Below, piece after piece: positions 13,369 to 57,504 of a stretch of DNA of 64,000 nucleotides (within the stretch, counting starts at the first letter, position 1; each line of letters opens with the position of its first letter). The stretch is from the NCBI RefSeq assembly GCF_963921235.1, contig NC_086108.1, positions 31,870,001-31,934,000 of the forward strand, read 5' to 3'. A model generated the notes under the pieces. It saw nothing but the letters and a program-made list of their open reading frames with translations, made no database searches and was not told where the DNA came from. The stretch comes from Mobula hypostoma. Lineage: Eukaryota. The position numbers were made by a program, and so were the translations under genes.

Positions 13369-13479
13369 TCTTCCTTCAGTTAGTCCTGACGAAGGGTCTC
13401 GGCCTGAAACGTCGACTGCGCCTCTTCCTATAGATGCTGCTTGGCCTGCTGCGTTCACCAGCAACTTTGATGTGTGTTG
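13369..13479 (+). mobile_element. Short Penelope-like 3' fragment inserted in CR1
   Basis: Nearly identical to the right arm of the 39710-40199 hairpin element; flanked by the duplication cgtcaat (13362-13368 and 13480-13486). Confidence 0.85.
13381..13418 (+). ncRNA. Minimal type I hammerhead ribozyme motif (PLE type)
   Basis: tagtc-CTGACGA-agg(gtctcgg)cct-GAAAC-GTC-gactg: stem I, intact core boxes, stem II, palindromic ACGU helix III and a GUC cleavage triplet. Confidence 0.7.
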
Positions 13480-15777
13480 CGTCAATCCTTTAAGTGTCAT
13501 TTGCCAGTCCTCCTCTTATTGTTACTGTCAGACATGCCCTCTTCCTATTGTTACTGTCAGGAAGGAGGTACAGAAGCCTGAAAGCACACACTCAGTGATT
13601 CAGGAACAGCTTCTTTCCCTCTGCCGTATGATTCCTGAATGGGCATTGAACCCATGAGCACTACTTGCCCCTTTTTTTAAAACCTATATTATTTCTGTTT
13701 TTGCACTAATTTTAATCTGTTCTATATACATATACTGTAATTGATTTACAACTTCATTTTGTTTTTTCTTTCTGTATTACCACATATTACACTGTACTGC
13801 TGCTACTAAGTTAGCACATTTCACGACACATGCTGCTAATAATAAACCTACTTCTGATTTCTAAACCCTTGTGTACCTGTGCTGCTGCCTCCAGAAATCT
13901 GTTGAATGTTCCCCAGTACTTCCTGGATCATTATCATCCATTGTGCATGTCATGCTCTTATTAGTCCTCCCAACCTTGCAGTCATTTCCAATCCATTTCA
14001 TTTGTTACTCTTCATTTTGATTTCTTAATATTTATTGGTTATTTATTTATTTATTATTTTTATCTTTTGTATTTGAGCAGCTTGTTGACTTTTACACACT
14101 GATTGTTCGCCCTGTTGGGTGCGGTCTTTCATTGATCCTATTATGGTTGTAGGATTTATTGAGTATGCTCACAATAAAACAGATCTCAGGGTTTTTACAT
14201 GTTGACGTATACGTACTTTGAACTTTAATATGGTCTCTCCACTGGAGAAAACAAATACAGATAGGATAACTGCTTTGCGGGCCATTTTTGTTTTGTTCAG
14301 TCTGCAAGTATGACCTTAAGCTTCTATTGCCTGTCACTTGTTCTGCTTTTCATCCCTACCTGTAGTTTCCTGCATTGTTCTAACAAGGCACAACACAAGC
14401 AGTTTGCGTTTCGTGTGAGCACAGTGCAGTTACTGTATGACCTGAGTGTTTCCATAATTTTCTGTTTTTATTTGAGTTCCAATATTCTCTTGTCTGTAAC
14501 ACTTCCTTTTGTTTTACCATTTTTACCACAGAACTCTCATTATTACTTTATTATTTTGAACTAAATCTAATTATGCCTTGAGTTAGTAAATTAGCTTAAG
14601 AAATAAAAGTGCAGCCTGATTTCTCAGTTCTCATTTACTTCCAACTTACAAGCCTCATTCCCACACAAACCCATTGCTCCTTGGCATGCAAAACTTTATC
14701 AGTTTCATTTGAATATTTCTGTCAGTAACCAGTCATGCATGCATATATGTTACTCATCTGTAACCTTTTGTTCCAATATAATAAGATGAATTATTCAATT
14801 TTATATGTTTATACCTCAGCCACAATTACAGTCACACATCTATATCTGGGCCTTGTAAAATAAACTCAAAATATGCATGCTGTGAATCTATGAAAGTGTA
14901 TGTTTCTGGAAAATGTGCCGGTTGATGAAGGGAAATCTCCATAGATAATTTATAAATCTCCAAGGTATGCAGTCACATAATGATGATGAAGAAGCAGGGC
15001 CCTTAACGTGAGAGAGCAAAACATTTTCTTAAAAATGGGATTAGCAATATATCCCATATGGTGTCAGTGGATTGCTTCAAATATCATAAATGCTCCAGAT
15101 GCTAATAAGGATGCCTTTTGGAAGACCACAACCAATAAACACAGAAGTAATGTCGTTGTTAAGAAACGTCAAATTAAAGAACAATGATTCCATGCCTGGT
15201 ACTCATTGCAGTCCCTCAACGTGAACTCTTCACAGAAGACTTCAATAAGGAATCCCCTCAGGTAGCCAAAAAACCACGGAGTAGAGACAGGAAGCAAAAA
15301 TGATTGCCCCTGTGGTTAGATCCAGCCTGAACTTGCGAATGGTGGTATTATACTTCATAATTTAATGGATCATTATGACCTAATCACCCATTGCAAGTTC
15401 AAAGTAAATATTGCTGGCCCAGTAGTTCAAAGGTTTTCTCACATTGAACTCTGATAATTAGTTTGCAATATGTTGTGGCCACAAAATTTAACAACCTGTA
15501 TCCACCTGGCAGGTGGATTTTAAAAATGATGTGTCAAAGTTCTATTTGACTACTAATACAGTACACCATCTCTGAACTTATCAAAGATATCTTAAACAAT
15601 GATTTGTCATACATATTGATATATTTCTGTCTGCTCACTCAGACATTTGGGACTGGATAACAGTAATATTGGTTGGGTTTGTGCTTCTTTCTTTTTGACA
15701 ATACTCTTCATTTTGCTCTGCTAAAGCAGGGTGGATTTCAATCCTGAGTGATTTTCAAAATTTTGGGCAGAAGTTCT

Positions 15778-17615
15778 TACAGATGCTGGAAATCCAGAGC
15801 CACATGCATAAAGTGCTGGAGGAACTCAGAAGATCAGGCAGCTGATGTTTCCAACTGAGACACTTCATCAGGTTGGAGAGGAATGGGGAAGATGCAGAAA
15901 TAGGTGGGGGGGTGGGAAGGAAGGACATATTAGGAGGTGATCGGTGAACCCCGGTGAGTGGGGAAGGGGAGAATAAAGTAAAAATCTGGGAGGTGATAGG
16001 TCTTCCTCTCAGATGCCTTCTCTAGCTATTTGCCTTTTCCATCCATCACCTCCCAGCTTCTTACTTCATACCCCCTTCCCCACGCACCTGGATTCACCTA
16101 TCACTTTCTAGCTCAGGGATAGGCAACCTACGGCCCGTGGGCCAGATCCGGCCCACGAGCAAATATTGGGATACTATGCTTATCCGGCCCACAAATTATT
16201 TTTCCTTATTCTGAGTGTTTCACACAACCACACCAATGGACATGCACATGAACCTGGGGCCTGTGTCTTGTTACACTGGCCCCAGGTTCCGTTTTGTTCC
16301 ACACCAAACACTGGTATATACGAATGACGGGAAGGCAGACTACCTTATTAATATGTATTAGATATCTCCGTGCGCAGGTTTTCAGATGGGATCGTTCAAA
16401 TTTGTAAACAAAAACAGTGTCACTGTTCTAACAAGAAATCCATGCTAAATATCCAGATATTTACATGAGCTATGATACTTGTTGAATAACTCTCGTTTTG
16501 AAATAAAATCGAAGAAAAAAATTCCAATGGCAATGAATGCAAAACGCAGGAAGGTGGACACTGAGTTCCGAAATTTCCAAGATACTTGGACACGAGATTA
16601 CTTCTTCATCGAGCAAGCTTGGAAACCAGTTTGCCTTATTTGCCTAGAAAATGAGACAAAGATCCAAAATTGAGAAAAGAGTTTTCATCTCGTTTTGCTG
16701 ATTTTCGCTTGCGTGCAAATGAGTTCAAGCTGTTTGCTACTCCATTTGATGTGGAAGTGGACACTGCATCAGAAATTTTTCAAATGGAATTGATTGAGAT
16801 GCAGTGTGATGACATATTGAGATCAAAATTTCATTCTGAAGGTGTGTCAGTGCTTGACTTCTATAGAAACTATATTCATCCAAGCGGGAAGTATCCTAAC
16901 TTAGTGGACCATGCAAAAAAGATGGCCTCATTGTTTGGCATCACTTATCTGTGTGAGCAATTATTTTCAAAAATGAAGCACACCAAGAACCATTTGAGAA
17001 CAAGATTGACTGATGCCCATCTGGATAATGTCTTCCGCTGGGCATCAACAAGTCTGACACCCAATATTGAGAAGCTTTCAAGCAACAAACAGCATCAAGT
17101 TTCACATTGATTTATTGACTGTTTGCATTAAAATTTTCTTTTTTATTATACTTAATTTACCACCATTCAGTGCATCATGTTCATACATTTTATGTTTAAA
17201 GGTTCTTTGTGTCCCTTTAATAGATTCAAAAGATGCCTTGATTGAAATAAATTGCAAGTAAACTGAGTTCTTTAATTACTAATTGGCATCCTTGGTTAAG
17301 CACAAATGATTTTCTAGCATGCGTTATTCATTAATTTGAGGCAAAACATAAATGGATGTATTTAAATGGATAATTCCCATATTTCAAGTTCTTTTATGGC
17401 ATTTATCTGGCCCACAGAAGCAAAAAGGTTGCCGACCCCTGTTCTCGCTTGTCCTCCTCCCCCTCTCCCCCCCCCCCATCAGCGTCTTTTTATTCTGGCA
17501 TCTTCCCCCTTCCTTTTCAGTCCTGATGAATGGTCTTGCCCCAAAATGGCAACTGTTTATTCATTTCCATAGATGGTACCTGACCTGAGTTCCTCCAGCA
17601 TTTTGTATGTTGACT
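15778..17615. mobile_element. Older Penelope-like fold-back element, interrupted by a hAT
   Basis: Minus arm 15778-16000 (agatgctggaaatcc...ggaggaactcag). Plus arm 16000-16113 and 17442-17615, ending gacctgagttcctccagcattttg. Decayed hammerhead at ~17518-17555. Confidence 0.7.
16114..17441 (+). mobile_element. hAT (Charlie/SPIN-like) DNA transposon, internally deleted
   Basis: Terminal inverted repeats (TIRs) cagggataggcaacct / aggttgccgacccctg; 8-bp TSD ttctagct / ttctcgct. Transposase N-terminus (KRRKVDTEFRNFQDTW...KPVCLIC) directly abuts the C-terminal dimerisation region (LFGITYLCEQLFSKMK...RTRLTD). Confidence 0.9.
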
Positions 17616-18429
17616 TGCAAAATTGTTTCTTTGGCCAATTCTTTTTTGTGTGTCCTCACACACTATTTAATTTGCCTTGCTTCTTTTAAGTCATATTTAT
17701 AAAGGTTGGAACATATCAACCACTTAAAATTTAGCAGAAAAAGGTGGCACATTTCTCACTGTTTGGTATCCAAATCTGTTGATTCTGCCAGAGTTCATCA
17801 ATACAAAAAAAAATGAGAGCAGTCCAAACCTCTCAAGTGTGCCCAGCTGTTCACTGTGGTCAGGACTGATTTGACTCGGGCCAATCTTTTGAAAACTTCT
17901 CTTTTTCTCAAAGAGTGTTCAAAATGGAGAATTGTAGAAATTCACTACCTCTTGGGGAACAAATTCTTAGGCATCTGTTTTAAATAACTATCCCTTTATT
18001 TGAGACTCACAAGGTCACAGCATTAGTATCCTGCCTCCTGAAAGGACTCTTTTATTCTGACTTGTCTTCTGTGGAGTTACCAATTCTAAAATGCACATTA
18101 ATGCACTTCTCTCAAAACTGTGAGCTCTTTTGTATTTAAAGATGACCTGGATAAGGGGATAAAATCCAAACAATTACACATTCTCCAATCAGGCAGAGAT
18201 AAAGCAGCTTTATACAGTTTTCCATTAGCAACATTAAATGACAGAGGTATTAATAAGGTGAGGTCATGGACAGTGTTTGCGTAAAACAAGTTTAAATGTG
18301 AGTAAATATGGTCATTAACTTTGCACCAAAATAGGATAGAACAGAAAGCATCTTTAAATCTTTGAATATCATAAATGTTTGAAGATTATCTATCTTTAAA
18401 AATAAGCTTTAGCTTTATTTGTCACACTA

Positions 18430-18810
18430 GGGCTTTTCTCTTTGGAGTGAAGTAGGATGAGAGTAACTTGATAGATGTATACAAGATGATAAGAGGCATA
18501 GAGTGATTAGCCAGAGACAGTTTTTCCAGAGCATAAATAGCTAATACAAGGGGGCATAATTTTGAGGTGATTGGAGGGAAGTGTAGGGGGGACGTGTCTT
18601 TACACAGAGTGGTGGGTGTGTGGAATGCCCTGTTGGGTGCTGGTAGAGGCAGATACATTAGGGGCATATAGGGAACTCTTATTAAGGCACAAGGGTTTTA
18701 GAAAAATGAAGGGCTATGTAGGAGGCAAGAGTTTGATTGATCTTAGAGTAGGTTAAAAGGTCAGCATGACATCATGGGCCGAAGGGCCTGTATTGTGCTG
18801 TAATATTCTA
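18430..18810 (+). mobile_element. CR1 LINE 3' fragment
   Basis: Similar to CR1 3' ends (ttacacagagtggtgggtgtgtggaatg...gggccgaagggcctgtattgtgctgta). Confidence 0.75.
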
Positions 18811-19579
18811 TCTTCTGTGTACATTGAAACATACAGTGAATTGTGTCATTTACATCAATGACTAACACAGTCCAAGATGTGCAGCCCACAATTGTTGCCG
18901 CGCTTCCATAGCCAAAATAACATGCCCACAACTTGACAACCCTAACCCATACATCTTTTGGTGTGTGGGAGAAAACTGGAGCACCAGGAGGAAACCAAAA
19001 GAAAAGTAATGAAATACTGGCCTTTATATTTAAAATTGTTCTGCAGATGCATTGTATAAAGCCCAAGGTAAATTACACTTGGACAGTTTGAGCAGATCTA
19101 TGCACCACAGCTTAGGGAGGATGTATTGGCTTTGGAAATGCAGCACTGATTTACTGTAATGATACCTGGTCTTGGAGGTCAGGTTTCGAGAAAAGTTTGT
19201 ACAAACTGGAGTTCAAATTTAGAAGACTGAGATTTGTTTCTAAAGATTTTAATTGAAACTGGCAGGGAAGATGGAGCGAAACTGTTTTCATTTATTGGAA
19301 AACCTAGAAATGAAGATATAATTGAAAAGTAATACTGAAGCTGGGAAACCTTTCAAAATAGTTGTTGAAGAAATTTAGAAAACTCAAAAATCACCGTTTA
19401 TTCTAGATTAGCTTTATATGTGAAATGAATATATTTAGTTAGCCATAGCTATATTTGTCAATGTAGAAAAGAGGGACTTGTGGAGTTTGTTCACAGATCC
19501 ACTGTATTAAATGGTGGAACAAGCGTAAAGGGGTTGGATAATTTCCTGTTCCTTTGCTATTCATCCTGGATTCAAATAT

Positions 19580-20075
19580 AAATTGGCAAAAAATGCGGGA
19601 AGAACTTGGCAGGCCAGGCCACATCTATAAAAAAGAGTAAACAGTTGACATTTTGGGCCGAGACTCTTCATCAGGACAGGGGAAAAAGAGATGAGAAGTC
19701 AAGAGTCAGAAGGTGTAGGGAGGAGAGGAAGAAAAACAAACAAAAAGGTGTAGCCATGGGAACTTGCTTAGGTCCCAGCTATAACTGGCTTTTTGTCGGC
19801 CACTTGGAACAGTCTATGCTCCAAGCCTACATCGGTATCACTCCCTAATTCTTCCATCGCTACATGGACAACTGCATTGGTTCTGCTTCCTGCACCCATA
19901 CCGAGCTCATCGACTTCATCAACTTTGCCTCCAACTCCCACCCTGCCCTCAAATTTACCTGTGCGTTTCCGACACCTCGCTTCCCTTTCTCAATCTCTTA
20001 CTCTATCTTAGGAGACAGAATATCCACTGATATGCTTTATTAAGTGCAGTGATTCTCACAGCTGCTTGGACTATA
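19580..20075. mobile_element. Penelope-like element fragment with RT motifs
   Basis: Plus strand 19740-20075 reads QKGVAMGTCLGPSY...RYMDNCIG...FINFASNSHPALKFT (PLE RT). An inverted terminal piece with a decayed hammerhead lies at 19642-19678. Confidence 0.8.
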
Positions 20076-20079
20076 CGGG

Positions 20080-21908: not shown

Positions 21909-22092
21909 GAACTGAAATTGCTACATTTTGAAAGACCAGCCACTTTCACCAAGTATACAAAGTCAAAGATGCTAATCATAGGCCAAGCACCCACTGCAGC
22001 TTTTAAATTTCCTCTGCTCAGCTCTTGGGCTGTGATGTGGAATGCAGAGTACTGTTGGTGAGCAGGGTTTCAACCCAATTTTAGCTGAATCT

Positions 22093-22317
22093 AGCAACAC
22101 ACATCAAAGTTGCTGGTGAACGCAGCAGGCCAAGCAGCATCTGTAGGAAGAGGTGCAGTCGACGTTTCAGGCCGAGACCCTTCGTCAGGACTAACGAAGG
22201 GTCTCGGCCTGAAACGTCGACTGCACCTCTTCCTACAGATGCTGCTTGGCCTGCTGCGTTCACCAGCAACTTTGATGTGTGTTGCTTGAATTTCCAGCAT
22301 CTGCAGAATTCCTGTTG
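22093..22317. mobile_element. Penelope-derived fold-back insertion: perfect 93-bp inverted repeat plus ~31-nt tail
   Basis: Arms 22093-22185 and 22194-22286 are exact reverse complements around an 8-nt loop. 15-bp TSD tttagctgaatctag at 22080-22094 and 22318-22332. Confidence 0.92.
22156..22193 (-). ncRNA. Minimal type I hammerhead ribozyme motif
   Basis: Reverse complement reads tagtc-CTGACGA-agggtctcggcct-GAAAC-GTC-gactg. Confidence 0.65.
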
Positions 22318-23143: not shown

Positions 23144-23241
23144 GTGATTGACGGAGCAGGATTAGATGTGGATTTCTATATTTCATCTCCAAATGGAAAC
23201 ATTCTGTACTTTGATCAGAGAAAATCTGATGGCGTGCACAG
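23144..23241 (+). CDS. TMED5: TMED5 (p24 gamma) coding exon 2
   Basis: Acceptor ccctctag and donor gtaagt; 98 nt; [32 protein letters not shown] matches the TMED5 GOLD domain. Confidence 0.93.
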
Positions 23242-25444
23242 GTAAGTGACAGACACTGTAACATTATTCATCTTGGAAGTTTGTCTTGTCAAAAACATTA
23301 AATGTACTTTGTCATTGAATTCAGTTTGAACTTTAAACTGAGTAACTCATTTAATTATTTTATACCACATACATTTTGTCTTCTGTGACACATGGGGAGT
23401 GCAGACTGAGCGATAAGTATAAGACCATAAGACACTGGAGCTGAATTAGGCCATCAGCCCATCAAGCCTGCTCCCCCATTCCATCATACCTGATTTCTAT
23501 CCTACACCAGCCTTCTCCCCATAACCTTTGATGCCATTCTAATCAAGAATCTATCAAGTTCTGCTTACCTAAACATAGTAATTTGTATCTCACTTAGAAC
23601 TCAGGGTGTGGATGTAGAAATAAATGTTCAAAATGACACCTAATGAGTATCAGCAGCCACTTTCCTTTGAAACCATTAGATGCTGGCTGTCAGGTGCTGG
23701 GGGCAATGTCCTGTTGCCCCATTGGTTAGCTTGTAGTTTTTTTTTCTTCTAATGAAAGATAGTTCCACATTCTTCATCATTGGGACTTAGTGTCTTCCCT
23801 GCCATTTCTGTTTTCTATTAATTCCCCAGCTTATTTAATATAACCAATGGTTCCCAGTCCTGTTGCTTATCACATTGTATGCCTTTTCTTTCAGTCAATA
23901 GCATCTTTAACTTTTTACCCTCTTTCTAGAACCTTTGGTGAGATTTGTGAAATGCCTCCATAAATGTCTGCCTCTGCTGTCTTACATTTTAATTTATTTT
24001 CCAAACTGCTTGTCAATTCTATCCTTGTGACATTTCAAGCTTTTCTCCTAACCTGTCTAAAGATCTTTCAGATCAATTTATATGTCATGGAGCTAATATC
24101 AGATGATTCCAGTAGATAGTTTCATTATCTCCAGTTTAAAGTTAATGCCATAATCGATTAAATTCAAACCAAGGTAAAATATCCAGCACTCCCAAAATAC
24201 ATTTTACCAATTTATGAAATGGTATGAATGTTGCAAAACATTGCTTAATATATCACATAGTTCCAAGTTACAGAACAATGAACTTCAAAGCTTAATTGAC
24301 AGTTATAATTGTGAATCTTTCTCAAGTAGGCTACAGATATCATTTCCAAATTTTTTCTGCCCTCCTAAATCCTTTTTTTTAAAAAAAAATGGATTTCCAG
24401 CTGGTGCTGGAAATTTGGAATTAAAAACAGAAATTGCTGGTCAGGTAGCATCTATGGAAAAACAGTTAAGTTTCAGATAATCACACAACAGGTGTTTGCT
24501 TGAGGTATTAACTCTTTATCCATTTCTAGAGATGCTTCCTGACCTAAGTCTTTACAGTGTTTTCTGTTTATAGTTGCTCTCTGTTCCGAGTTCTTTGAAT
24601 AGTAAATAACTGTTTGCAGTGCATACATGACATTGGTGTACATTTACATGGTTTCTGATCCCAGTGATGTTTACCATCAGATGGTAGGGAAGGTGTGGCA
24701 CCATATAGAAATATAGCACAAATTATGGAAACAGGTTTGCAAATGGCATGCTCCCAGAATTATCTGAATTTTAAAGTGAGTAAAGAGAGGTTTTCAAAGC
24801 TTCATACATTCCCAAGGATTCCATAGTCCTAATGTAAGAAACACAGCTACCAATTTGTGCAAAACTGTTCTGCGGATGCCAAGGAGTCAAATGCTTAGGA
24901 AATAAGTCAATGAAATAAATTCCAGGAGCTGAATGGTGGGGATTAGCATCTAGAATCTGAGTGAAAATATTAACACTGTTAATTGTATTGATTTGACTTG
25001 TACCTGTTTTGTACCAAGAGATATCATGTGATTTAATAATACATTTATGAAACGGCAAGTATTTGTTTTGGCAGGGATTTGTGGGGAAAAAAACTTGAGT
25101 GGTTGAAAAGTTGATCACCAGCTAACATCACCCCACAAACCAACCTTATCCAACAGTTTTCTATACATGACTAGCCAGAGCGCCATCTTTGGCAGATTTC
25201 ATTTTTTTACAAATGTGCACATAATATATTAAAAGCAACTCATTGAAGTTTAATTTTGCTTTTAAATCAAAATAGTCTATAAGCAGCAGTGTATTTTTGA
25301 CACATGTGAGATATATTGATCTGCATTATGATGCAGGATTTAGTGTTTGAATGTTTGTTCTGCACAGTTTGATACACATTCCATATTATAATACCCACCA
25401 AAGCTTTTTAAAAAATTAATTAAGTTTGAAGTGACAGGCAAGAG

Positions 25445-26010
25445 TGAGTGATGGCCTCCTTCAGTCAGAGCTGACCATGGAGATTGCATCCTAGCTGTCT
25501 GGATCTGCAAGCCTAGACAGTATGATATGGAGAGCAAGTAAACTCCCTCTCCACGCAACTGATGAACCTAAAGGAACAGCAGGGATCTTTACATTTTGGT
25601 ACCAGCAGCGTCGCAGGAGTTGCCAGTCAGCATTGAACTCAGTGTAGGACTGCCTTAAGGACTCCAGCTCTGGATTTTCCCTCTGGGTCTACTGTCAAAG
25701 CCTTCCCCGTGAGTGGGTATAGCTACAAGGCAGTGGAAGTTTGAGATCAGAGTTTTCCTTCTAAGTGAGCTGCCAACCACGGCTGTCGAGCCCCATCTGC
25801 CCAAAGTGACTCGTTTTAAGGCGCCAGTAATCTGCCTTTGCGCCTTCTCCTGTCAATAGAAACTGTTCCACTGGGCTTAGTAGCTAAGCCACACATGAAG
25901 GCCGGGAGCTGGACTTGGTTGTATGAGGCTATTTCAGGCACATGCCATGTGGAGCATTTAATAGGTTGTAGGATCATGCCTGTTACCACCCCAGCTTATA
26001 ACAACCTTAA
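25445..26010 (-). mobile_element. RTE-like retroposon remnant
   Basis: Degenerate; resemblance by pattern only. Confidence 0.35.
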
Positions 26011-26874
26011 GGACAATCAAGAATGGAGGAGGAATTAGTGCAATTTATATTTGTGGCTATGTGTACTCTGGATCTAACCTTTAATGCAGTCTGTTTGCAG
26101 AGTGCTTGAGATAAAAGATCAGGGTGGGTGTGTGAACTCAAAACATAAAACTAATCAAAATAAAAACAAGGGAGTCTGGAATGTGTGTACATTGGTTTCG
26201 TTTTTATTTTTAGCGAGACGTCCACATAGGATATGGTGATGTGATGACATGCCATTTACATATAACTGGTAATGAATTATTTAAACAAGAATGCTTAATC
26301 AAATGATATATTTACAGTGTTACTCAAATATTACTGAAATACATAACACTCATCCCTGCTTAGCTATAAACTCCAACTCAGAGTACAGTATGTGCAAAAG
26401 TGTGGGGTACACGTACTGTGTAGCTAGGGTGCCTAAGACACAGTGCACAGTGCTGTATTTGTCAATGTGGAATGGCGAGAGTTTATAAATCTGGCAGGAG
26501 CAAAAGATGTTGGGAATGGCGAGGGTGGAGCAGGTGTGGGACAGGTGGCAGAGAGGGAATGCCGGGGTGGTGGCTGGCATAGGTGCAAGCACACCCAGCT
26601 TTGATATCTGGCAAAATCATTTAATTCCAAACAATTGGTTTATTGATCATCACAGAATGTGTCTCTAGTGCTTCCCGCTCCCCACTTCCCCTTTTCACAA
26701 CCATGATTTCCCTCTCCCTGCCCCCTTCCCACTCAGTGCATAACAAAGACTCATATCAGAATCAGGTTTCTCATTATTCACATATGTCATGAACTTTCTT
26801 TTTGCAACAGCCATACAGTGCAATATATGAAATTACTACAGTACTGTGCAAAAGTCTTAGGTACCCTTGCTATA

Positions 26875-29484: not shown

Positions 29485-32400
29485 TAATTATGTACCTAAG
29501 ACTTTTGCATGGTACTGTAGAATACATCTCAACATTTATAAAGGATATACTATATAATACAACTATAGACACCCACAGCATAGTATATTTTAAATTGTCC
29601 CATTCAGCCTAAAGATTTGATGGCTGTGGTAGTTTTCTTATTCTTGTGGGGTAACGTCTTTTCTGACAAGGGAGGTCCCTGCTTGGCAAGTAAGACTTGT
29701 GGCTGTAAAAACAACCTCAAGTTCTGAGGCCTCCTCTGTGATGGTTGTGGGAGTTGACTCTGGGACTGCAGAAGTGTTTCTGACAGCTCTGGAGTTAACT
29801 CTGGACACTTTTCTTCTGGACCTGTTGGCATCCCAAACAATGCATGGCAAGCTTTACTGGATGATGTGGATCATAATATGTGAGTACAAGGTCTAACTGT
29901 AGACCTTCCTTTACTTTTTGGAAAGTCATGTCACACTCCTGTGTCCAGTGCCATCTCTTCCCTATCTGTAGTAATGAGTTCAAGGGGTAGAGCACAGTAG
30001 CCAGGTGTGGCAGGAACCTATTATAATAATTGACAAATCTGAAAAAGGATTGCATCTGTGTCGTGTCTTTTGACCTTGGGCCATTCACCATTGTTTAAAT
30101 TTTCCCAACACATGTAATTTTTGTGCCATCAATGGTGTGAGCACATTAAATAATGCTTGGTTTAAAGAATTCATACATAACATGTCGTGCTTTGAGCCCA
30201 TGATCTAATCTTTTTAACAATATCCTGAGATTTTGGAGATGTTCCTTGCCATCCTCACCAGTAATCATGAGGTCATCCGGGTAACACTGAGTGCCTGGAC
30301 AGCCTTGCAGCACCTGGCCCATAGCTTTCTGGCAGAGTGCGGGTGCAGATGCTACTTCAAAATAAGCTTATTATAGCGATAAAGCCCTTTGTGAGGGTTT
30401 AAGGTGAAAAACCCTTTGGTCTCTTCTTCCATCTCCATCTGTTAGTCCTCAGCTAAGTCCACTTTGAAGTGTTTTCCACCTGAGAGGTTTGCAAAGATAT
30501 CCTCTATGCTGGGCAGATCATATTGATCCACTTTCAGTATAGGAATGATGTTGACCTTAAAATCACCACAGATCCTAACAGACCCATTCTTCTTGTCTAG
30601 TGGTGCTGCCCATGGACTCCACTCAACCTTGGAAAGAATTCATTCATTCTACATGTAATCTAGCTCACTGGCCACTTTATATGGTATAAGGGATCGGATG
30701 GGCTTTGTAAAACTTGTGTGTAGCACTTTAACACTTTTACCCTTGATATGTTTGAGATTTCCAATATCATCTGTGGCATCATCAAGTACCTTCCTTAATC
30801 CAGTTTCAGTTGACTCTGCAGGGGATGTGGCATGCAGATGGTGAATAGGTCTCCAATCAAGTTGTAGTTTTCTCAGCTGTTTCTGTCCCTACAACGCTGG
30901 CCCTCCTGTTTTACCACATACAGGGCCGATGTGGCTTGTTGTTTGTTGTATTTCACTGTTACAAATGTCATTTATACAGGAATTATCTTTCTCCAGTATA
31001 AATTCTTAGTTTGATATCTTCAGGCTTCAGTTCAGTTTCTTCGAAATGCCGTTCAAATTCATTTTGCAGAATGACAGAAACAGCCGAGCCGGTGTCCAAT
31101 TCCATTTTAAGTAATTTGCCATTCATTTCTAGTGCAAGCCATATTGCTTATCTATTGTTAGTTTTCACATTATAAATCCCAAAGCTACCCATACCTGCAT
31201 AACTCTCATCATTATCAAATTTTTCATCAACAGCATGCAGATTAGTGCTCTTTCTGAAACTACAACTTTTTTATCTTTTACTCTTCTATGTGCAATCCAT
31301 TTATTTTTGCCAACGTGTTCTTTGTATGTATCCTACATTATTGCTTTCTCTGCAAGTTTCACCTTTAAATCTGCATTGGTCTGGTCTCTTCGAGGCCCTG
31401 CCACAACAGTAGCTTTTGTTCAGCCAGGCAGGCCCCCATCTAGACCAGCAGTTCCCAACTTTTTTACGCCATGGAGCCTTAACATTAACTGAGGGGTTAG
31501 GCCTATATTCACTCAAATTCAGGTTGGGAACCCTGGTCTGGCTGCTGCAATTTTATTCGCCCTCACTTTCATTCCTGACTGCACCTCAATTGCATCTGTC
31601 TGCTGATACAGCTATTTCAACTGCTCCTTTAAATGTTAAGAATGCTTACTCAAACAATATGCTTACAATATTACTCAAATATTACTGAAGTATTTAACAT
31701 ACAACAGAGAATAGACAAGGTGCTAAGTGCATGCATCTGTGTACAAGCAAGTGTGTACCTTCTAGGTGACACCTATTCATGTGCCTACTGCATTTGTGTA
31801 TTAAATCCCATTCAACAGAGCTGGTCTCCGGTCTCCTTGGACCTCTTCAATGTTAGTTTTAAGGCTCCATGTGTGCTATTAAAGGAAACATTCTTAGGCA
31901 GGTTTCACTCCGCTTCAGGAAGTTCAGGGCCTGGAAGTCACAATCGTACTGGACAATCTCAGCAGTGACAGACCTGAATACTCATCAGCTATCACAGCCT
32001 GGGAACACCAACTCTTTGACATCAGTGCGATGTTGAAGATGTTTCTTTAAAGGGGGAAATAGTAGGTACACAGTTTCTGGATGGTCAAGCCAAAAGAAGC
32101 GCACCACCTTACAAATGTTCTACTGACCTGTGCCAGAAAGCATCTTCTCGATCTGTGGCTCCAATGTTGGTCTCATAAGCCCACTCAGACTCCACAAAAA
32201 TCAGCGTGGAAACAAGTTAACCTCAGTCCTAAGGAACTACCTTGGACGGGAAATAAGAAAGAAGGGAAATGCTAGGGTGAATTTCAGTAGATCCAAAGAG
32301 GGAGCAAGATGAGTTCTCTGAAACAGTTGAGGTTAATGTTCAACAGTGTTAGCTAAAAATTTAAGGCAGAAACTTGTTCATGACATACTTCAGCTCTGGA

Positions 32401-32764
32401 CTTCCAATGGCACTCATTACAAGGAATAGTAATCATGAGTGATAATATAAGATGCTTATGAATTGTGCACATATTGAGTGCTAACATTATATTCTATGAT
32501 TAAAGGTAGGTAGCTTTCAGAAATCAAACCTGTAGCAATGATAAAATAAGTCTGGGATTTTAATTATTTTGTTTTAAACTTTGCTGCTTTCTAACTTGGG
32601 ACAAATCCTCTATGACATTTATAGCCTATTTTATTTTATAAAGAGTTAAAAATGCAGAACCATCTAGCTGTTTCCTCCTTCACCATCTGCATTTATTTGT
32701 TATTTGTACATACAATGAACAAATTTACTATTTCTTTAAAAAAACATGTTTCTTTCATTTTTAG

Positions 32765-32945
32765 CATCGAAACTGAGAATGGAGACTACATGTTCTGTTT
32801 CGACAACTCATTTAGCTCTATATCAGAGAAGGTAGTGTTCTTTGAGCTTATTCTGGACAACATGGAACCTGAGGGTGACTCAGCCAAGTGGAATGATTTC
32901 CTACCAGGAGGGGAGTTGCTTGATATGAAACTGGAAGACATTCTA
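32765..32945 (+). CDS. TMED5: TMED5 coding exon 3
   Basis: Acceptor ttttag and donor gtacgt; phase matches exon 2 (AG+C = Ser); IETENGDYMFCFDNSFSSISEKVVFFELILDNM...LLDMKLEDIL. Confidence 0.95.
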
Positions 32946-33319
32946 GTACGTGTCAGCTTTCCTGTGGCTTTTATTCTGTTGCAAGTGTGCAAGAAAGTGG
33001 GTAATAGGGAACAAACAGCAATCAACCACTGTTTAACAGCCAGTAAACTCATAACTCTTATCTTGTTAGTCTGCTGAGTGATAAAATGGGTTGCTAAACC
33101 AATGCGTGGCAGAAATGATGTTGTCTTCCTTCCACTATGGGAATTAAACAAATTCAAAGTTGACTGTCTATTTGGATTTTCCTGGATAATGTGGTTTTAA
33201 AGATTAGGTGCAACATCCCCACTGATTCCTAAAACTTTCTCTGATTCATGCCAGTGAAAGTGAAGAAAACATTAGGAATGAAATCTTGGGTCCACTTTGG
33301 GAGCACAGACAAACTCTGT

Positions 33320-34115
33320 AGATAAGATATAGGAACGCAATTAGGCCTCTTGACCCATTGAGTCTGCCCCGCCATTTCATCGTGGCTGATCTAATTTTCC
33401 TCTCAGCCCCAATCAGCCTTCTCCCCATATCCCTTTATGCCCTGACCAATCAAGAATCTTATCAACCTCTGCCTTAAATATACATAAAGACTTGGCCTCC
33501 ACAGCTGCCTGTGGCAAAGAATTCCACAGACTCACTACTCTCTAGCTAAAGAAATTCCTCATCTCCATTCTAAAAGGATGCCCCTCTATTCTGAGGCTGT
33601 GTCCTCTTCTGCTAGACTCTCCCACCACAAGAAACATTCTCCCAACATCCACTCTATCAAAGCCTTTCACCATCTGATAGGTTTCAACGTGGTTACTCCT
33701 CATCTGAATTCGATTGAATATAGGCCCAGAGCCATCAAAAGCTCTTCATATGACAAGCCATTCAATCCTTGAATCATTTTCACGAACCTCCTTTGAACCA
33801 TCTTCAGTTTCAGTACATTCTTTTGAAGATAAGGGACCCAAACCTGCTCACGATACTCCAAGTAAAGTCTCACCAGTGCTTTATAAAGTCTCAGGATTAC
33901 ATCCTTGCTTTTATGTTCTGGACCTCTTGAAATTAATGCTAATATTGCAGTTGCCTTCCTCACCACAGACTTGACCTGCCAACTAACCTTTAGGCAATCT
34001 TAAACAAGGACTCTCAAGTCCCTATGCACCTCAGCTTTTTGTATTTTCTCTCCATTTAGAAAATAGTCAACCCTTTTATTTCTTCTACTAAAGTGCATGA
34101 CTATACACTTGCCGA
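33320..34115 (-). mobile_element. Older CR1 LINE 3' fragment
   Basis: Minus ORF 33700-33966 (LRLYKALVRLYLEY...VQRRF) with an (ataagat)n-like tail. Confidence 0.85.
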
Positions 34116-34384
34116 TAGATAGCGGGAGTAGTACAGTAACTCTCAAATTACTCAGCAACCAGCTTACCGGGCACCTCTTGTCCCATCTGCCAAACCCGCC
34201 CTCCCCGCCTCAGAGGAAATAAGTAATCCTCGTTATTGAGGTGCTGCCTGAAATGGAGAGAAACCACGCTTCTCTTGCTTTCGTACCCACCCTTTGCCCT
34301 TATTTTGATTTATCAAAAATTAAGCTATGTTCAATATTTGCTTTTCACTCTTCTGAAACTATCCTATTTTTCTGTTCGATTGCT

Positions 34385-35850
34385 AGAACATAGTACAACA
34401 GAGGTACAGGCCCTTCAGTCCACAGTGTTGTGCTGAACCATCTAAAAAGTAAATTAAAAATACTCAATTACCTCCTACCTACACAATGTCCATATCCCTC
34501 CATCTTGTTCACATTCACGTTCCTATCTAAACATCTCTTAAAAGCCTCTAATATATTTGCAGCACATTTCAGGCTTCCACCACTCTGAGTTTTAAAAAAA
34601 AACTACCCCTCCCATCCCCTTTGAACCTACCCCCTCTGCCTACCCTCTAGTATTAGACATTTCTACTTCGGGAAACAGATACTTCATGTCTGCGCTATCT
34701 ATGCCTCTCATAATATTCTAGACCTCTATCAGATCTCTCCTCAGCCTCCACCACTTCAAACAAAACAACCCAAGTTTGTCCAGCCTCTCATGATAGCACA
34801 TGCCCTCTAATGCAGGCAACACCCTGGTAAACCCCTTCTGCACCCTCCAAAGCCTCAACATACTTCCTATTGTGGGGCAACCAGAACTGTACATAATACT
34901 CCAGATGTGTTCTAATCAAAGTTTTATAAAGTTACAGCGTAACCTCTTGACTTTTGAACTCATTGCCTCAACTAATAAAAGCAAGCATGCTATAAGCCGC
35001 CTTAACCACTCTATTGGTCTGTGTAGCCACTTTCAAGGAGCTGTGAACTTGGATCCCAAGATTTTGCCCTTAACAGTGTACTGTCTCCTTGCATTTGCCC
35101 TACCAAGACGCAACACTTCACATTTATCTGGGTTAAACGCCGTCTACCATTTCGCAGCCCATATCTGCAACTGATCTGTATTGTTCTATAATCTTTGCCA
35201 GTCTTCTACACTATCCCCAACTCCACCAATCTTGGTATCATCCATAAATTTACCAATCCACCCGTGTACATTTACATCCAGGTCATTTATGTACATCACG
35301 AACAGTAGAGGTCCCAATACAGATCCCTGCGGAACACCACTAATTACAGACCTCCAGCCGGAAAAAGTTCATTCAACCACTACCCTCTGTCTTCTATGCG
35401 CAAGACTGTTCTGAATCCAAACAGCCAATGATAGACTTTTGTCGAACTTACTAAGATCTATGTTGGCAATATTCACTGCCGTACCTTCATCAATATCTCT
35501 TGTCACTGTCAAAAACTCAGGTTGGTAAGACACAACTTTAATACTCATTCGGAGGCCCTACACTTTCTCCTCCTCGACCTCTAAATGCCCTAACATATTT
35601 ATACAATCAGCACTGATCCTCTGGTCCTTTGTGTCCTTTTCCTTGGCAAATACTGAAACAAAGTACTGAGTTCCTCACTCAAGTTCTTCGCATCCAAGCA
35701 AATGTTCCCCTGTTTATCCTTGAGTGGTCCCACCCTCTCCCTTGGTATCCTCTTGCTCTTGGTACATGTATAGAATGCCTTGGGATTCACCTTAATCCTA
35801 CTTGCCAAAGACTTTACATAGCCTCTCCTGGTTTTCCTAATTCGCAATTA
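34385..35850 (-). mobile_element. Older CR1 LINE, degenerate
   Basis: Degenerate RT pieces (ggtgttccgcagggatctgtattgggacc; NPKAFY...RERVGPLKDKQGN). Confidence 0.8.
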
Positions 35851-36821
35851 CAAATTGGAATTCCTGATTTCTGCTATCCCAAATTCTCTCAGTATTTTCC
35901 CCTGGGCATTTATTTTTTCCCTCTGTGTACTCCCTGCTCTACAAATTGACTTTGCTATTATTTTCAGTAAGTATAACAATTCTAACAATGCAGTTTTACT
36001 TTGATTCTGCTTGAATAATCTGCAGGACAGAAGTACTTGCATTTATAAACATTTAAAGGTAGAAATAGAACAGGAAATAGCAACATTTTGATCCTACCTT
36101 GACATTTGGTGCATCGAAGGATACAGTACAGAATTGATATAATGCAAGACCCAGGTTACTTAATGCTGAGAACCACAAATGTCCTGACAATTTTAAATAG
36201 TATAAATAGGAGCATTGTATAGTACATTATGATAAAATGGTGCTTTTTAAAAATTCAAATTACTGTGTGTACATATCTGTAAAGACTCAGCTGAATGCTA
36301 TAGAATTTGGCTCCATTGATCTGCTTTCGGGCTGTACTCTGGGATTTGTGTGGGAGGAGGAGAAACTAAAGAAGTAGAAATTCCAGTATAGATTCTTTCT
36401 TCATATATTCACTTCCCTTTAGCTTTTTAACTTTTAGCCTTCCCTCCGGAGTTCATGGAGCCAAATCTCACTTGCTTGATAGCATAACCTGCCGGAGATT
36501 AATGATATGTCAACCATAATTAATTTTCTGTTTCCAACTACAAATGATTATGAGAATCTGAGGGAAAATACAAAAAATGGCAAATGTGGAAAACAGGTTT
36601 GCAAGCTGGGGAAAGTAGAGTTTGTTTTGGAGGGAATTTTTCCCCACTCGGAAACAAGTGCAATTGTGCAAATAATCTTGTTCCATGCACTTCATTTGGA
36701 GGATAACTGAGGTCACTACTAATTCATTTGTGGTTATGTTCATTATTGAAGGTGACAATCAGCCTGTCAAAAGTCGCACAGGAAGAATTGGGTCAGCTGA
36801 CAGAAACTTGTTCTGTGTAAT

Positions 36822-37085
36822 GCAGACACAAGAGACTACAGATGCTGGAATCTGAATAAACAAGCAATCTGCTGGAGAAACTCGGCAGATCGAGCAGCAT
36901 TTATGGCAGGGTGAGGGAGAGGAATAATGCAGGGTCCTAATGGCAGAATTTCAGACACCAGAACCCTGCATCATTCCTCCCCTGACCAAATCTCATAGGT
37001 GCTGCTCAACTTGAAATGTCAACAATTCCTCCCACCGCATCACAGACGCTGCTTGATTCACCGAGTTCCTCCAACAGTTTGTTAT
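36822..37085. mobile_element. Older Penelope-derived fold-back insertion
   Basis: Imperfect inverted arms; 14-bp TSD ttgttctgtgtaat at 36808-36821 and 37086-37099. Confidence 0.7.
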
Positions 37086-37270
37086 TTGTTCTGTGTAATA
37101 AACATGACTCTAAAAAGTATTTTAGATCATGTAAATTGTTGAATTAATATGAAATGTATGTTTAAAAAGTTTTGTTTTAAAATAGAATTGCATGCAGCTT
37201 TTCATTTGTAACTCGAACATCTGTATTCTGAAATGCAAATTTTTTTTTTCTTTTGCGGGGTGTTATTTAG

Positions 37271-37489
37271 GAAACTATAAACAGTGTGAAAGGAAGACTG
37301 AGTAAAAGCAACCAGATTCAGGGGCTGCTTCGGGCCTATGAGGCACGTGATCGGAACCTCCAAGAAGGCAATTATGATCGGGTGAATTTCTGGTCAGTTG
37401 TGAACCTGGCTGTGATGCTCATTGTTTCAGGTCTGCAGGTATACATGCTGAAAAATTTATTCAATGACAAGCGAAGAAGCCGAACGTAG
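37271..37489 (+). CDS. TMED5: TMED5 last coding exon
   Basis: Acceptor tatttag; ETINSVKGRLSKS...EARDRNLQEGNYDRVNFWSVVNLAVMLIVSGLQVYMLKNLFNDKRRSRT* (coiled coil, transmembrane helix, cytosolic tail). Confidence 0.95.
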   Translation, partial: ETINSVKGRLSKSNQIQGLLRAYEARDRNLQEGNYDRVNFWSVVNLAVMLIVSGLQVYMLKNLFNDKRRSRT

Positions 37490-39773
37490 TGGCTGAGAAG
37501 TGATTGTTGATTAAGAAGACAAGATGGTGTCTGGAAGGGCACTGTAGTTATTAAAAATCGTGTATGCAGGGATTTCCTTTACCGTAGACACTTATATTTA
37601 AAGATATTCTATAAGGCTTATAATTAAGCAACAAAATGGTCAGAAAAAGAGAAACGTCATGTTCTTTGGGAGAATAAATGGATACATTGAGCTTTAATAC
37701 TATTAGCGACACAAACTAAGAGCTTAAAGCCTTAAATTCACTGCCAAAACAAGCTGGTGATCTCTGCTAGCACATAAATAAAACAATTAATGCTGGATCC
37801 TCACCACTAGCCATCTGCCACATCCTGAAAGCTGCTTTGGACGGAGTCACCAGTTTTCAAGGTTGCGATATTATGACATTGAGTGTTGGTATCTGTCAAC
37901 ATTGTACTTGGACTTGAATGTCTGAGCCTTTTAAGTCAAGTATAATAGATTCTTCTAAAGTACAAAGGCTAGTGTGCTGTTGTATATGAGTAATGATGCT
38001 CTGGACATTTGTACCTGAACATTTCATAGCCCACAGCAGCAAAACATGCTGACTGGGGTCAAAGTACAAGTTGGCTTCCTACTCACTCGGTCTGCCTTTT
38101 TTTTTTGAAGAAGTTAATTAGTACATACTGCAGAAATTATGTAATAATATTTTTAAATTTTCATACATGACAAAGAGCAATGAATTCTTAACAGAAACTG
38201 TGATGGTACAATCTGTGAATATTCTGATGTAAAATTTCATCCATTTACTCTATCAATGTGTGCAGCAATTCAATAGATCTACTTGAAGCCAAAATATAAG
38301 GAAGCAACATCAAATTGATTTGCAAAGGTTGAACAATCTAGGAAATGCACTGTTCTCCAAAACCCTTCACCACAATACCCATAATAATCTGAGCTCATTT
38401 ATTTTATTATGGGCATTTTTTTTTGCTACTTTCTCTTGCACATTTGTGGTACAGTGTGAAGGTTATTAGTATTATAATCTGCCTTACTCATCATTTTAAG
38501 GTTGTCTCAGCCCCATTAATTGTGGCTTCAGTAGAATTATAGTTTCATGGAAAATCTTAAGTGTAGTTGCATATTATGAAAGCGGTTTTTACAAATGTTG
38601 TCAGTCTTGTTCCCTTGAAATATTGTTGTCTGGAGAACAATTCCCTTTGGATTCTTTAAAACATCACGTATAAATTTTGACATGGTTGAACCCATTTTTA
38701 CTTTTTTCCCCATGAATGATCTTATAATTGATTCGAACATTGGAAAAGGCTTGTATAACAATTAAAGATACTGGTTTAACAGATCTTTTAGGTACTTTTC
38801 ACTGGTTTCTTCTGTGTTACTGATCAAGGAAAGCAAGTGCAAACGGGAAGTTGACTATAGGCTACAAGTGTTTCACTTAATGTTGTTTAGAGCTGTACAA
38901 TGACAACTCTCAGAAATTTGCTTTGTGTCACACAAATTACAGCCATTCTATAAAGTACTTTTGTCCATAATATGATTTCCAAGTTTCATGTGCAGTGTTT
39001 TCTTGGGGGGAAATTGAGTCTCATTGTTCAAGGATCGATTACTCTACTGGAACTGCTGTATGTTTCCCCGACAAAAACTGATAACGAGAATATTTTTGTC
39101 TCTGAAACCTACCTTCCTTTACCTCCTATACAAGGGCAAGTTTGTGCCTTGTGTCAGATTAAGAAAAACCTTAACCCAGATTTTGGAGGATGTCTATCAT
39201 AACATTCTGTGGATAAAGTAATGTGATGGGCCTCCAACAATTCAGGTTATAAGCCCATGTTGACATTGGGTTCGGTCTTGTGTCTTCAGCATGACTTGCA
39301 AGATATTGTTTTTTCAGTGAAAAAAATGTTGCCTCATACAACAGTTAATAAATATTGTTTCCAGGACCAGTCTTGGCCTGAAAGCATAGGTATTAAGGGA
39401 AGTGTTGATGACAGCAGGATTGAGGAGGAGATGGGGGTGGGCGAGTGCTGATTGGGAAAATATTGAAGAAAGGGCAATAATGGTTGGAAGGGGTAAAGGT
39501 GGGGTTCATGGGGCAAGGCTGGGCTGTGTATTGGAAGAGGAGTGCACGCTGGACCCAGGGATCTGCCGAGGGTTTTGTGATTGTGACCTGTTATGAGACT
39601 TAAAGGTCAGACAGATATCTGGGGGAGGAGGTGGTTGTGTTCATTCCTTATAAGTTCTGTATGGGATACAAAAATATGTGGATACCATTAGCTGTTCCTG
39701 GAATAATATAAGCAACACACATCAAAGTTGCTGGTGAACGCAGCAGGCCAGGCAGCATCTGTAGGAAGAGGTG

Positions 39774-39811
39774 CAGTCGACGTTTCAGGCCGAGACCCTT
39801 CGTCAGGACTA
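39774..39811 (-). ncRNA. Minimal type I hammerhead ribozyme motif
   Basis: Mirror copy of 40098-40135. Confidence 0.65.
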
Positions 39812-40097
39812 ACTGAAGGAAGAGTGAGTAAGGGATTTGAAAGTTGGAGGGGGAGGGGGAGATCCAAAATGATAGGAGAAGACAGGAGGGGGAGGGATGG
39901 AACCAAGAGCTGGACAGGTGATTGGCAAAAGGGGATAGGAGAGGATCATGGAGTGTCCCATGATCCTCTCGTATCCCCTTTTGCCTATCACCTGTCCAGC
40001 TCTTGGCTCTATCCCTCCCCCTCCTGTCTTCTCCTATCATTTTGGATCTCCCCCTCCCCCTCCAACTTTAAAATCCCTTACTCACTCTTCCTTCAGT

Positions 40098-40135
40098 TAG
40101 TCCTGACGAAGGGTCTCGGCCTGAAACGTCGACTG
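40098..40135 (+). ncRNA. Minimal type I hammerhead ribozyme motif
   Basis: tagtc (40098) CTGACGA (40103-40109) agggtctcggcct GAAA (40123-40126) C GTC (40128-40130) gactg. Confidence 0.7.
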
Positions 40136-57480: not shown

Positions 57481-57504
57481 TATGGTTCTGCAAAAACAAT
57501 CACC

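Follow-up and report, generated by a model that had tools for sequence, protein, structure and literature searches.

Minimal type I hammerhead motifs in a ray genome lie in short insertions that are likely truncated 3′ ends of an abundant Penelope-like element

Minimal hammerhead ribozymes (min-HHRs) of Penelope-like elements (PLEs) occur in thousands of copies in coelacanth and Xenopus, and single dispersed motifs and opposite-strand pairs 100-700 bp apart have been ascribed to truncated PLEs (PMC4209133). Among the names looked for in the PMC4209133 supplement, no cartilaginous fish appeared. PLE insertions follow a characteristic pattern, with an inverted truncated partner, a one-sided tail of 30-40 bp and a target-site duplication (TSD) of variable length (PMC8557442, PMC3846280, PMC11167929). 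Retrozymes are tandem repeats that give circular RNAs (PMC7229834; bioRxiv 10.64898/2026.07.22.740005), and non-LTR retrozymes, which are kin to PLE pseudo-LTRs, have been reported in the only cartilaginous fish sampled (bioRxiv 10.64898/2026.07.22.740005).

An earlier note on the window, the whole 64,000-nucleotide stretch of Mobula hypostoma DNA analysed here, had reported four identical 38-nt hammerhead motifs. Exact matching placed all four on the strands and at the positions given below, with no match at three or fewer mismatches in any of 100 dinucleotide shuffles.

13381..13418, + strand: hammerhead motif A, intact; predicted cut after 13413
22156..22193, - strand: hammerhead motif B, intact; folding predicts that it pairs with the opposite arm
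39774..39811, - strand: hammerhead motif C-, intact
40098..40135, + strand: hammerhead motif C+, intact; predicted cut after 40130

In agreement with that note, the sequence contains stem I, the two catalytic boxes, a loopless ACGU and a GUC triplet, and the two cuts that the note predicted are correctly placed. Set against the consensus line of the PMC4209133 supplement, the young motif combines CUGANGA and GAAAN boxes, an NUH cut triplet and the type I order with an extra base (A) after A9; helix III is a loopless ACGU palindrome, there is no loop III and stem I does not extend. Stem II is also present, with a pairing other than the one first proposed: the published consensus favours an unpaired A followed by GGGU(CUCG)GCCU. 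So paired, stem II of the four copies closes with a G10.1-U11.1 wobble instead of the usual G-C, a closure also found in cichlid, Xenopus and coelacanth rows (PMC4209133). Their identification as minimal type I hammerheads of PLE origin is supported.

The earlier count of about eight intact or decayed motifs was too low: a gap-free scan of the window found seven decayed motifs besides the young ones, and a profile scan returned 19 matches, 12 from the training alignment and 7 new, against one in the reversed-window control. With Rfam, nothing in the window reached gathering score, the one match by E-value was a chance sRNA, and for 40040-40240 a cut-off as loose as E = 10 brought up no hammerhead family. 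Motif pattern scans gave nothing usable in viral contigs, metagenome contigs or prokaryote genomes; one viral-contig match (L001) was rejected as an isolated 20-nt match with unrelated flanks.

The four intact motifs derive from three insertion events, not four, which have TSDs of 7, 15 and 16 bp, differing 5′ ends, two inverted pairs and a tail confined to one arm.

13369..13479, + strand: insertion A, a single 5′-truncated young PLE 3′ end of 111 bp, without tail
13362-13368 and 13480-13486: TSD of insertion A, 7 bp
22095..22195, - strand: insertion B, arm without tail, beginning 0-2 nt upstream of stem I
22194..22317, + strand: insertion B, arm with tail, the fifth young arm, 5′-cut at motif position 9
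22080-22094 and 22318-22332: TSD of insertion B, 15 bp
39711..39951, - strand: insertion C, arm without tail
39958..40230, + strand: insertion C, arm with tail, comprising a 140-nt pyrimidine-rich stretch, the hammerhead, a further 64 nt up to the first 3′ end, and the tail
40200..40230, + strand: tail, ~31 nt
39695-39710 and 40231-40246: TSD of insertion C, 16 bp

When 1,500 randomly drawn sites were searched for TSDs in the same way (skipping a few that fell outside the window), 16 matches reached at least 7 bp and none reached 14 bp. Insertions B and C are head-to-head inverted pairs, each with the tail on only one arm, and the cut at motif position 9 leaves the + arm of B with an incomplete first catalytic box. 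Insertion A interrupts a CR1-type LINE copy, and paralogous LINE copies at ~1879 and ~42443 have the site once, without the insert; copies of this LINE family are ~97% identical, and the young arms are 97-99% identical over their shared aligned stretch. The two arms of insertion C show five differences, all within the upstream 140 nt, a distribution (p = 0.065) that gives no clear sign of two different templates.

Older relatives of the young 3′ end are scattered through the same window.

51830..52685, - strand: older PLE copy that keeps a decayed linker, a remnant of the GIY-YIG endonuclease, a pyrimidine-rich stretch at its 3′ end, a decayed hammerhead at 51917-51954 and a tail
54685..55329: older PLE copy whose + arm (54815-55329) contains a decayed hammerhead at 55234-55271 and adjoins an opposite-strand ORF remnant at 54685-54888
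19579..20040: older PLE copy whose - arm contains a decayed hammerhead at 19642-19679 and adjoins a + strand reverse-transcriptase remnant at 19747-20040
15790..15968, - strand: older PLE 3′ end, decayed hammerhead 15839-15876
17458..17616, + strand: older PLE 3′ end, decayed hammerhead 17518-17555
51372..51475, - strand: old PLE 3′ end, strongly decayed hammerhead 51434-51471
57498..57684, - strand: older PLE 3′ end, decayed hammerhead 57564-57601
56731..56884: inverted mini-insertion of another subfamily, one-arm tail, each arm cut off inside the motif or after it, with a TSD of 13 bp
56106..56290, - strand: third GIY-YIG remnant, with a weak 3′-end match downstream at 55558-55627

Aligned with three older copies, the young hammerhead-to-tail stretch beat all 300 shuffles each time, and the tail region of the 51830..52685 copy shares 82% identity with the young arm across 71 nt. 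The young 3′ end is homologous to older copies that bear a GIY-YIG remnant. The young 140-nt upstream stretch aligns only weakly with older copies, with 12, 0 and 13 of 300 shuffles scoring as well. A TSD search at five older loci found one clear case (13 bp) and none at two; candidates at two older loci were rejected, one a 14-bp match that overlaps the element and the other only 6 bp long.

In a full HMMER scan, the old copy at 52 kb matched 693 proteins at E up to 0.001, the best named matches being from sharks and rays. Among 12 matches scanned, nine contain a weak Pfam GIY-YIG domain (two of the nine pass the curated cut-off) and five of those nine also contain RVT_1. An ORF with reverse transcriptase and C-terminal GIY-YIG upstream of the 3′ repeat is found for older homologous copies and was not seen for the young subfamily. 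The 74-aa remnant returned nothing in a word-indexed protein search, and Pfam also misses the remnant itself. Of the CX2-5CxxC linker, the CxxC lies in frame in the 52-kb remnant and the first Cys in another frame, and the linker is complete in the homologues P0001 and P0004. The clade is probably Neptune, a call made from the linker motif in the homologues, and the linker also occurs in Nematis. Searches for sense or antisense read-through proteins joining the young end to an ORF gave only host-gene models. Separately, a Hypanus PLE-like protein model ends V-P-stop, and arm C+ reads the same at its 5′ edge; this is a likeness of three codons, noticed post hoc, and we record it as a hint.

Together, these results make it very likely that the four motifs are minimal type I hammerheads within three short insertions, the 5′-truncated pseudo-LTR 3′ ends of an abundant, probably Neptune-type PLE; in situ they are predicted to be inactive passengers. 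By analogy with PLEs of other species, the PLE reverse transcriptase/GIY-YIG protein would nick AT-rich DNA on both strands. Reverse transcription would start close to the pseudo-LTR of the RNA, at one or the other of two sites separated by ~30 nt, and its early stop would leave arms of 100-270 nt, one with a tail and one without. Selection would keep the ribozyme in source elements, in whose partial-tandem transcripts two motifs could pair by way of their ACGU palindromes and cleave at a slow rate, probably aided by protein. Dispersed copies have no same-strand partner nearby (17.6 and 26.7 kb separate the closest intact motifs on the same strand), and the motifs of insertions B and C would be buried by the antisense arm inside a long hairpin.

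For a family-wide comparison we used contigs from four public runs (the contigs alone, from runs without a record as RNA). Core conservation relative to the flanks and covariation in stems I and II had both been proposed as checks on the ribozyme. The first is present: 1 of 38 motif positions is variable against 16 of 76 in the near flanks (Fisher p = 0.010), indicating that the motif is conserved within the family, with a weaker contrast against the remainder of the element (26/209, p = 0.09). The sole motif variant restores G10.1-C11.1, a pair found in ~20-29% of contig depth and in several older copies, whereas the four young copies have G-U. The second check gave nothing above shuffles across nine window copies, with 72.7% paired cells against 74.2% and 2 double changes against 2.7. 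Loose ends of the contigs cluster at 40196-40198 and at 40232; contigs mostly stop at two 3′ positions, past which the sequence is AT-rich and of low agreement. Further loose ends at 40099 and 40135 imply that the motif alone is common to other subfamilies.

Seventeen ray gene models carry the antisense strand of the element in frame, 14 of them via one GT donor; models of N-PAC, FRRS1, SNTG2, MAGOH and AS3MT are among the candidates for exonisation.

The antisense strand of the young end is open for at least 46 codons and has, besides several AG acceptors, a single GTGAGT donor immediately beyond the complement of the ribozyme; on the sense strand, a pyrimidine tract with CAG abuts the foot of stem I, and a sense block starts there in two gene models. 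Alu exonisation in primates offers a comparison. We tentatively suggest that in devil and manta rays the young PLE end may be an Alu-like source of exons, its antisense strand spliced in frame into many host genes and its sense strand providing a 3′ splice site at the base of stem I; this is a possible reading that we hold with some doubt. If true, a ribozyme-bearing retroelement would be rewriting ray proteomes through exonisation. A literature search found no paper on PLE exonisation in rays.

Folding was predicted with a secondary-structure model that ignores core contacts, run without a known-active control. Bases paired outside the motif number 30 of 38 in B- and 38 of 38 in both C- and C+, and the prediction for these three, out of four motifs, is a lock imposed by the motif's own antisense arm; in motif A, stems I and II each have a modelled probability below 1%. 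The monomer is predicted to form a rod in which CGUC is base-paired to the first catalytic box (-11.0 kcal/mol); at -11.5, a double hammerhead would be far less stable than the best inactive dimer (-30.3). Such energies would suit a motif conserved in source elements for something other than cutting in vivo, such as protein binding or an overlap with a 3′ splice site or ORF start, and the splice-like sequence at stem I points the same way, as do Anolis PLE ribozyme mutants without effect on in vitro insertion and the lack of RNA-seq reads ending at the cut site (PMC11167929). However, catalytic boxes, cut triplet and both stems are conserved together, other subfamilies share precisely the motif, and related minimal motifs cut slowly as dimers or with protein (PMC4209133; PMC11167929). 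We consider a non-cleavage role unlikely; it is compatible with truncated PLE 3′ ends as the origin of the insertions.

The extent of the young copies bears on a different proposal, that the family is a short non-autonomous PLE derivative, with a pseudo-LTR-only master of a few hundred bases that a related PLE's protein disperses in trans. In the window, no young copy extends beyond 140 nt upstream of the motif (the longest arm is 273 bp) and no full-length copy was seen; the relationship between the upstream stretch and older copies with an ORF is weak, the frame running through the tail has no ATG to open it, and PLE derivatives of this kind are known (PMC8557442; bioRxiv 10.64898/2026.07.22.740005). 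Yet the 5′ ends vary among insertions, lying at -12, -2, +9, -140 and -140 relative to stem I, ORF remnants persist in older members of the same 3′-end lineage, and the Hypanus likeness is a further hint against it. We regard this proposal as improbable.

The earlier note's young, recently active PLE-derived family holds up, but its separate non-coding "retrozyme-like system" is not supported, because retrozymes are tandem and yield circular RNAs, whereas the copies here are dispersed and inverted with differing 5′ ends. A true non-LTR retrozyme, with transcribed, self-cleaving tandem monomers spread via small circular RNAs, would account for the type I motif and fit the report from cartilaginous fish and the kinship with PLE pseudo-LTRs (bioRxiv 10.64898/2026.07.22.740005), and a few contig joints do "go back" on the element. 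Those that reach the motif have a depth of 4-24, against ~10^5-10^6 across the element in the larger runs. No tandem repeat in the window contains the motif, and no head-to-tail monomers occur, copies being single or inverted. None of the five young arms begins at the cut site, as would be expected if ribozyme cleavage set the 5′ ends; neither the canonical helix III nor the loop 1-loop 2 contacts of the definition (PMC7229834) are present in the motif; and sequence past the tail is heterogeneous (agreement ~0.4). A retrozyme is accordingly very improbable.

A host gene was identified through Pfam EMP24_GP25L, with AG/GT at the exon borders and a single frame open for 165 codons.

23144..37489, + strand: host p24/TMED-family gene, exons 23144-23241, 32765-32945 and 37271-37489

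Its first exon was not found by motif search; insertions A and B, upstream of the first exon found, are probably in an intron, and insertion C lies 2.2 kb beyond the stop codon. Domestication of the motifs as regulators of this transcript, which such positions and the conserved intronic hammerheads of amniotes (PMC6155905) might suggest, is the least probable reading, given how young the insertions are (near-identical arms, and A within a near-identical LINE family), the incomplete first box of B on the gene strand, the predicted antisense lock on C+ and the low modelled stem probabilities of motif A.

The ray family of PLE hammerhead ends was not found in print; the kind of element is already well described. 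Truncated PLE 3′ ends, as we read these insertions, extend the known association of minimal hammerheads with PLE pseudo-LTRs to a very abundant, recently active ray family. Young and high in copy number, represented by both a G-U and a G-C allele of stem II and offering clean empty sites, it is suited to testing PLE hammerhead cutting in vivo and to studying how inverted arms arise.

One of the closest described systems is the min-HHR of metazoan PLE pseudo-LTRs (Cervera and De la Pena 2014, PMC4209133), with which the ray motif shares the U-rich 5′ flank, CUGANGA with the extra base, GAAAN-NUH without loop III and a 5-bp stem I, likewise occurring mostly as dispersed single copies and opposite-strand pairs; it differs in its short (4 bp) stem II with G-U closure. 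Endonuclease-positive Neptune-type PLEs share the 5′ truncation, the inverted truncated partner, the one-sided ~31-nt tail and the variable TSD, and their Cys-rich linker before a C-terminal GIY-YIG is shared by the older copy and its homologues; the difference is that the young ray subfamily is seen as 3′ ends only. Non-LTR retrozymes of animals have in common with the ray copies a type I hammerhead, short non-coding units and kinship with PLE pseudo-LTRs, whereas the ray copies in the window are without tandem monomers, a fixed unit, a canonical helix III or a start at the cut site.

The 38-nt motif occurs in the window as four exact copies with zero mismatches, at 13381-13418 (+), 22156-22193 (-), 39774-39811 (-) and 40098-40135 (+), and in none of 100 shuffles; the earlier note was correct both in placing these copies and in recognizing them as a type I hammerhead. 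Its parts are stem I (UAGUC/GACUG), CUGACGA, an extra A, stem II (GGGU(CUCG)GCCU), GAAAC and GUC, and no Rfam model picked it up. Beyond the four, a gap-free scan of the window turned up seven motifs that have decayed, plus a single palindromic junction copy, and a profile trained on 12 window copies gave 19 matches, seven of them new, against one in the reversed-window control.

The four motifs represent only three young insertions, each flanked by a target-site duplication (TSD):

13369-13479: insertion A, one arm, 7-bp TSD, within a CR1-type LINE
22095-22317: insertion B, head-to-head inverted pair, 15-bp TSD
39711-40230: insertion C, head-to-head inverted pair, 16-bp TSD

The same search applied to 1,500 random draws returned duplications of at least 7 bp in 16 and of at least 14 bp in none; because 16 draws reached at least 7 bp, the TSD of A rests on its empty site, which was seen in two paralogous LINE copies. 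A ~31-nt tail is confined to one arm each in B and C. Relative to stem I, the five young arms start at -12, -2, +9, -140 and -140, and none of the five begins at the predicted cut site (after 13413 and after 40130). Three of them (13369, 22194, 22195) are 5'-cut at -12 to +9 around the start of stem I, and several opposite-strand joints in contigs from public sequencing runs likewise fall at 40100-40109. An inverted joint between opposite strands, 40100/40142, reached a depth of 1673 in one run (X5) and 82 in another (X19), with other joints far lower, and may represent an amplified fold-back unit. The arms of C (39958-40097 vs 39812-39951) differ at five sites, every one upstream of the motif (p = 0.065) and one a common family polymorphism, reflecting either two templates or later mutation. 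The profile scan also placed two old inverted pairs of PLE (Penelope-like element) 3'-end relics at 24436-24546 and 36859-37097.

At the family level, contigs from four of 22 listed runs, which are not on record as RNA, were aligned onto 39955-40240. Between 471 and 10,107 contigs aligned per run, numbers that point to a large family and are no copy number. Loose contig ends after 40196-40198 and 40232 are AT-rich with agreement of ~0.4-0.5, the pattern that scattered insertions with two 3' ends would give, and those at 40099 and 40135 belong to contigs of other subfamilies, with the motif in common and different flanks. Counting positions listed at 5% or more as variable, the motif contains one, compared with 16 among the 76 bases that flank it (p = 0.010), and the difference is weaker when the comparison takes in the remaining element (1/38 vs 26/209, p = 0.09). 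The core conservation anticipated in the earlier note is supported against the near flanks and less firmly against the whole element. None of the four CpGs in the motif is listed as variable, and the sole motif variant brings back G10.1-C11.1. Contigs were aligned at 85% likeness, which is biased towards those that match, so this conservation supports constraint without proving it. The proposed stem covariation did not appear above shuffles in nine window copies, as expected because copies decay after insertion.

The young hammerhead-to-tail stretch aligned with each of three older window copies better than all 300 shuffles, and the young upstream 140 nt aligned weakly (12, 0 and 13 of 300 shuffles equal). 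In the older copy at 51830-52685, the upstream continuation is a broken ORF that, translated with X in place of stops, gave 693 protein matches at E <= 0.001. Among 12 of these, picked for domain scanning from the best and longest of 150 listed, nine had a Pfam GIY-YIG endonuclease match (above the curated cut-off in only two of the nine), five of which also carried the reverse-transcriptase domain RVT_1; shark or ray labels were borne by seven of ten matching proteins looked up. The Cys-rich linker of the older copy and its homologues points to the Neptune type. The matched proteins also located the following remnants:

19747-20040: reverse-transcriptase remnant, opposite strand to the neighbouring hammerhead-bearing arm
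54685-54888: PLE ORF remnant, opposite strand to the neighbouring hammerhead-bearing arm
56106-56290: PLE ORF remnant

This ORF evidence comes from older copies, the young subfamily being known here by its 3' ends; translations of the young element reached as much as 100% identity with gene models of Mobula, and the host is therefore probably Mobula or a close ray.

Other features of the window are as follows:

1-1991, 11225-13509, 40305-42555, 52650-54679, 45458-47303, 58698-60231: CR1-type LINE copies, reverse-transcriptase and endonuclease domains (Pfam)
23144-37489 (+): p24/TMED-family gene, three exons, single open frame
16476-17110 (+): decayed piece of a hAT-type transposase, its dimerisation domain weakly matched by Pfam
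27319-28241 (+), 28674-29095 (+), 20202-21322 (-), 29795-31147 (-): broken ORF pieces

Four LINE copies are mutually ~97% identical and two come from an older subfamily, and the first exon of the p24/TMED-family gene was not found in the window. By eye, the four broken-ORF regions resemble transposases (Tc1-type and others) and LTR-retroelement pol. Directly upstream of a LINE copy, at 5163-11095, lies a G-rich 50-bp minisatellite repeated over 100 times, and the flank of this minisatellite resembles ~50498-50631.

Source elements would be transcribed as partial tandems, in whose RNA two motifs could pair through ACGU into a double hammerhead; such motifs are described as having low activity and needing a dimer or protein (PMC4209133, PMC11167929, review PMC6765202). 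The monomer is predicted to fold into a rod burying the first box (-11.0 kcal/mol, with stems I and II alone at -7.0), and at -11.5 the double hammerhead is much less favourable than the top-scoring inactive dimer (-30.3), in a model that disregards core contacts and was run without a known-active control. Pairing with the antisense arm is predicted in context for 30/38 motif bases in B- and 38/38 in both C- and C+ (the motifs of B and C by strand), the stems of motif A have a predicted probability below 1%, and same-strand intact motifs are separated by 17.6 and 26.7 kb. Given this antisense pairing, the improbable stems in A and the distant same-strand partners, the models indicate that the window copies are most likely inactive end pieces.

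When arm C, read in antisense, served as the query, the search retrieved 17 named gene models from rays, 16 of Mobula and one of Hemitrygon (P0167-P0183), in which a block corresponding to 40232-40080 (-) lies in frame. Fourteen of the 17 share the same final block codons, after which the window has the splice-donor match GTGAGT (40085-40080, -), and blocks start near AG sites at 40223, 40212, 40196 and 40181. Seven genes were set beside their sister isoforms or orthologues: in N-PAC, SNTG2 and FRRS1 the block is, in whole or in part, a clean insertion; two of the other four have no block-lacking isoform and two are confounded by further differences. Alu-like exonisation is possible at the level of gene models, and since these are computed and the search selected in-frame cases, block-bearing models may instead be annotation artefacts. 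The sense reading occurs in two further models, from a pyrimidine tract and CAG adjoining stem I. On the + strand, 3' splice site-like pyrimidine tracts with AG lie at 40066-40100, at the foot of stem I, and at 40132-40153, 20 nt past the cut site and immediately followed by ATG, the latter present in older subfamilies too. The end of the Drosophila virilis Penelope intron coincides with helix I's 5' end (PMC4209133); our literature search found no paper on PLE exonisation in sharks.

Non-LTR retrozymes are described as ~150-450 bp tandem monomers that have the canonical type I motif and yield circular RNAs (PMC7229834), and a 2026 preprint (bioRxiv 10.64898/2026.07.22.740005) defines them by at least two consecutive hammerhead-bearing units, derives them from PLE pseudo-LTRs and reports them in its single cartilaginous fish. 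No tandem hammerhead-bearing units occur within the window, and the 'retrozyme-like system' of the earlier note is unsupported, the window elements failing the retrozyme tests that were applied. The literature search found no account of this PLE family in rays; the preprint's fish tables may cover a related family, and the PMC4209133 supplement may list more species than the part searched.

By the structural features tested, the window elements belong to the PLE pseudo-LTR class, and they work like its members. The motif matches the minimal PLE hammerhead consensus in the PMC4209133 supplement bar one stem II pair, the closing pair being G-U here and G-C there. The same work reports scattered single motifs as well as pairs on opposite strands, 100-700 bp from each other, and attributes both to truncated PLEs. 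In vitro work on the Anolis PLE attributes the tail to two internal reverse-transcription start sites together with both strands being nicked at AT-rich DNA (PMC11167929). PLE insertions are described as heavily 5'-truncated, next to a truncated copy in inverted orientation and with a 30-40-bp tail on one side (PMC8557442, PMC3846280), and B and C show this same arrangement.
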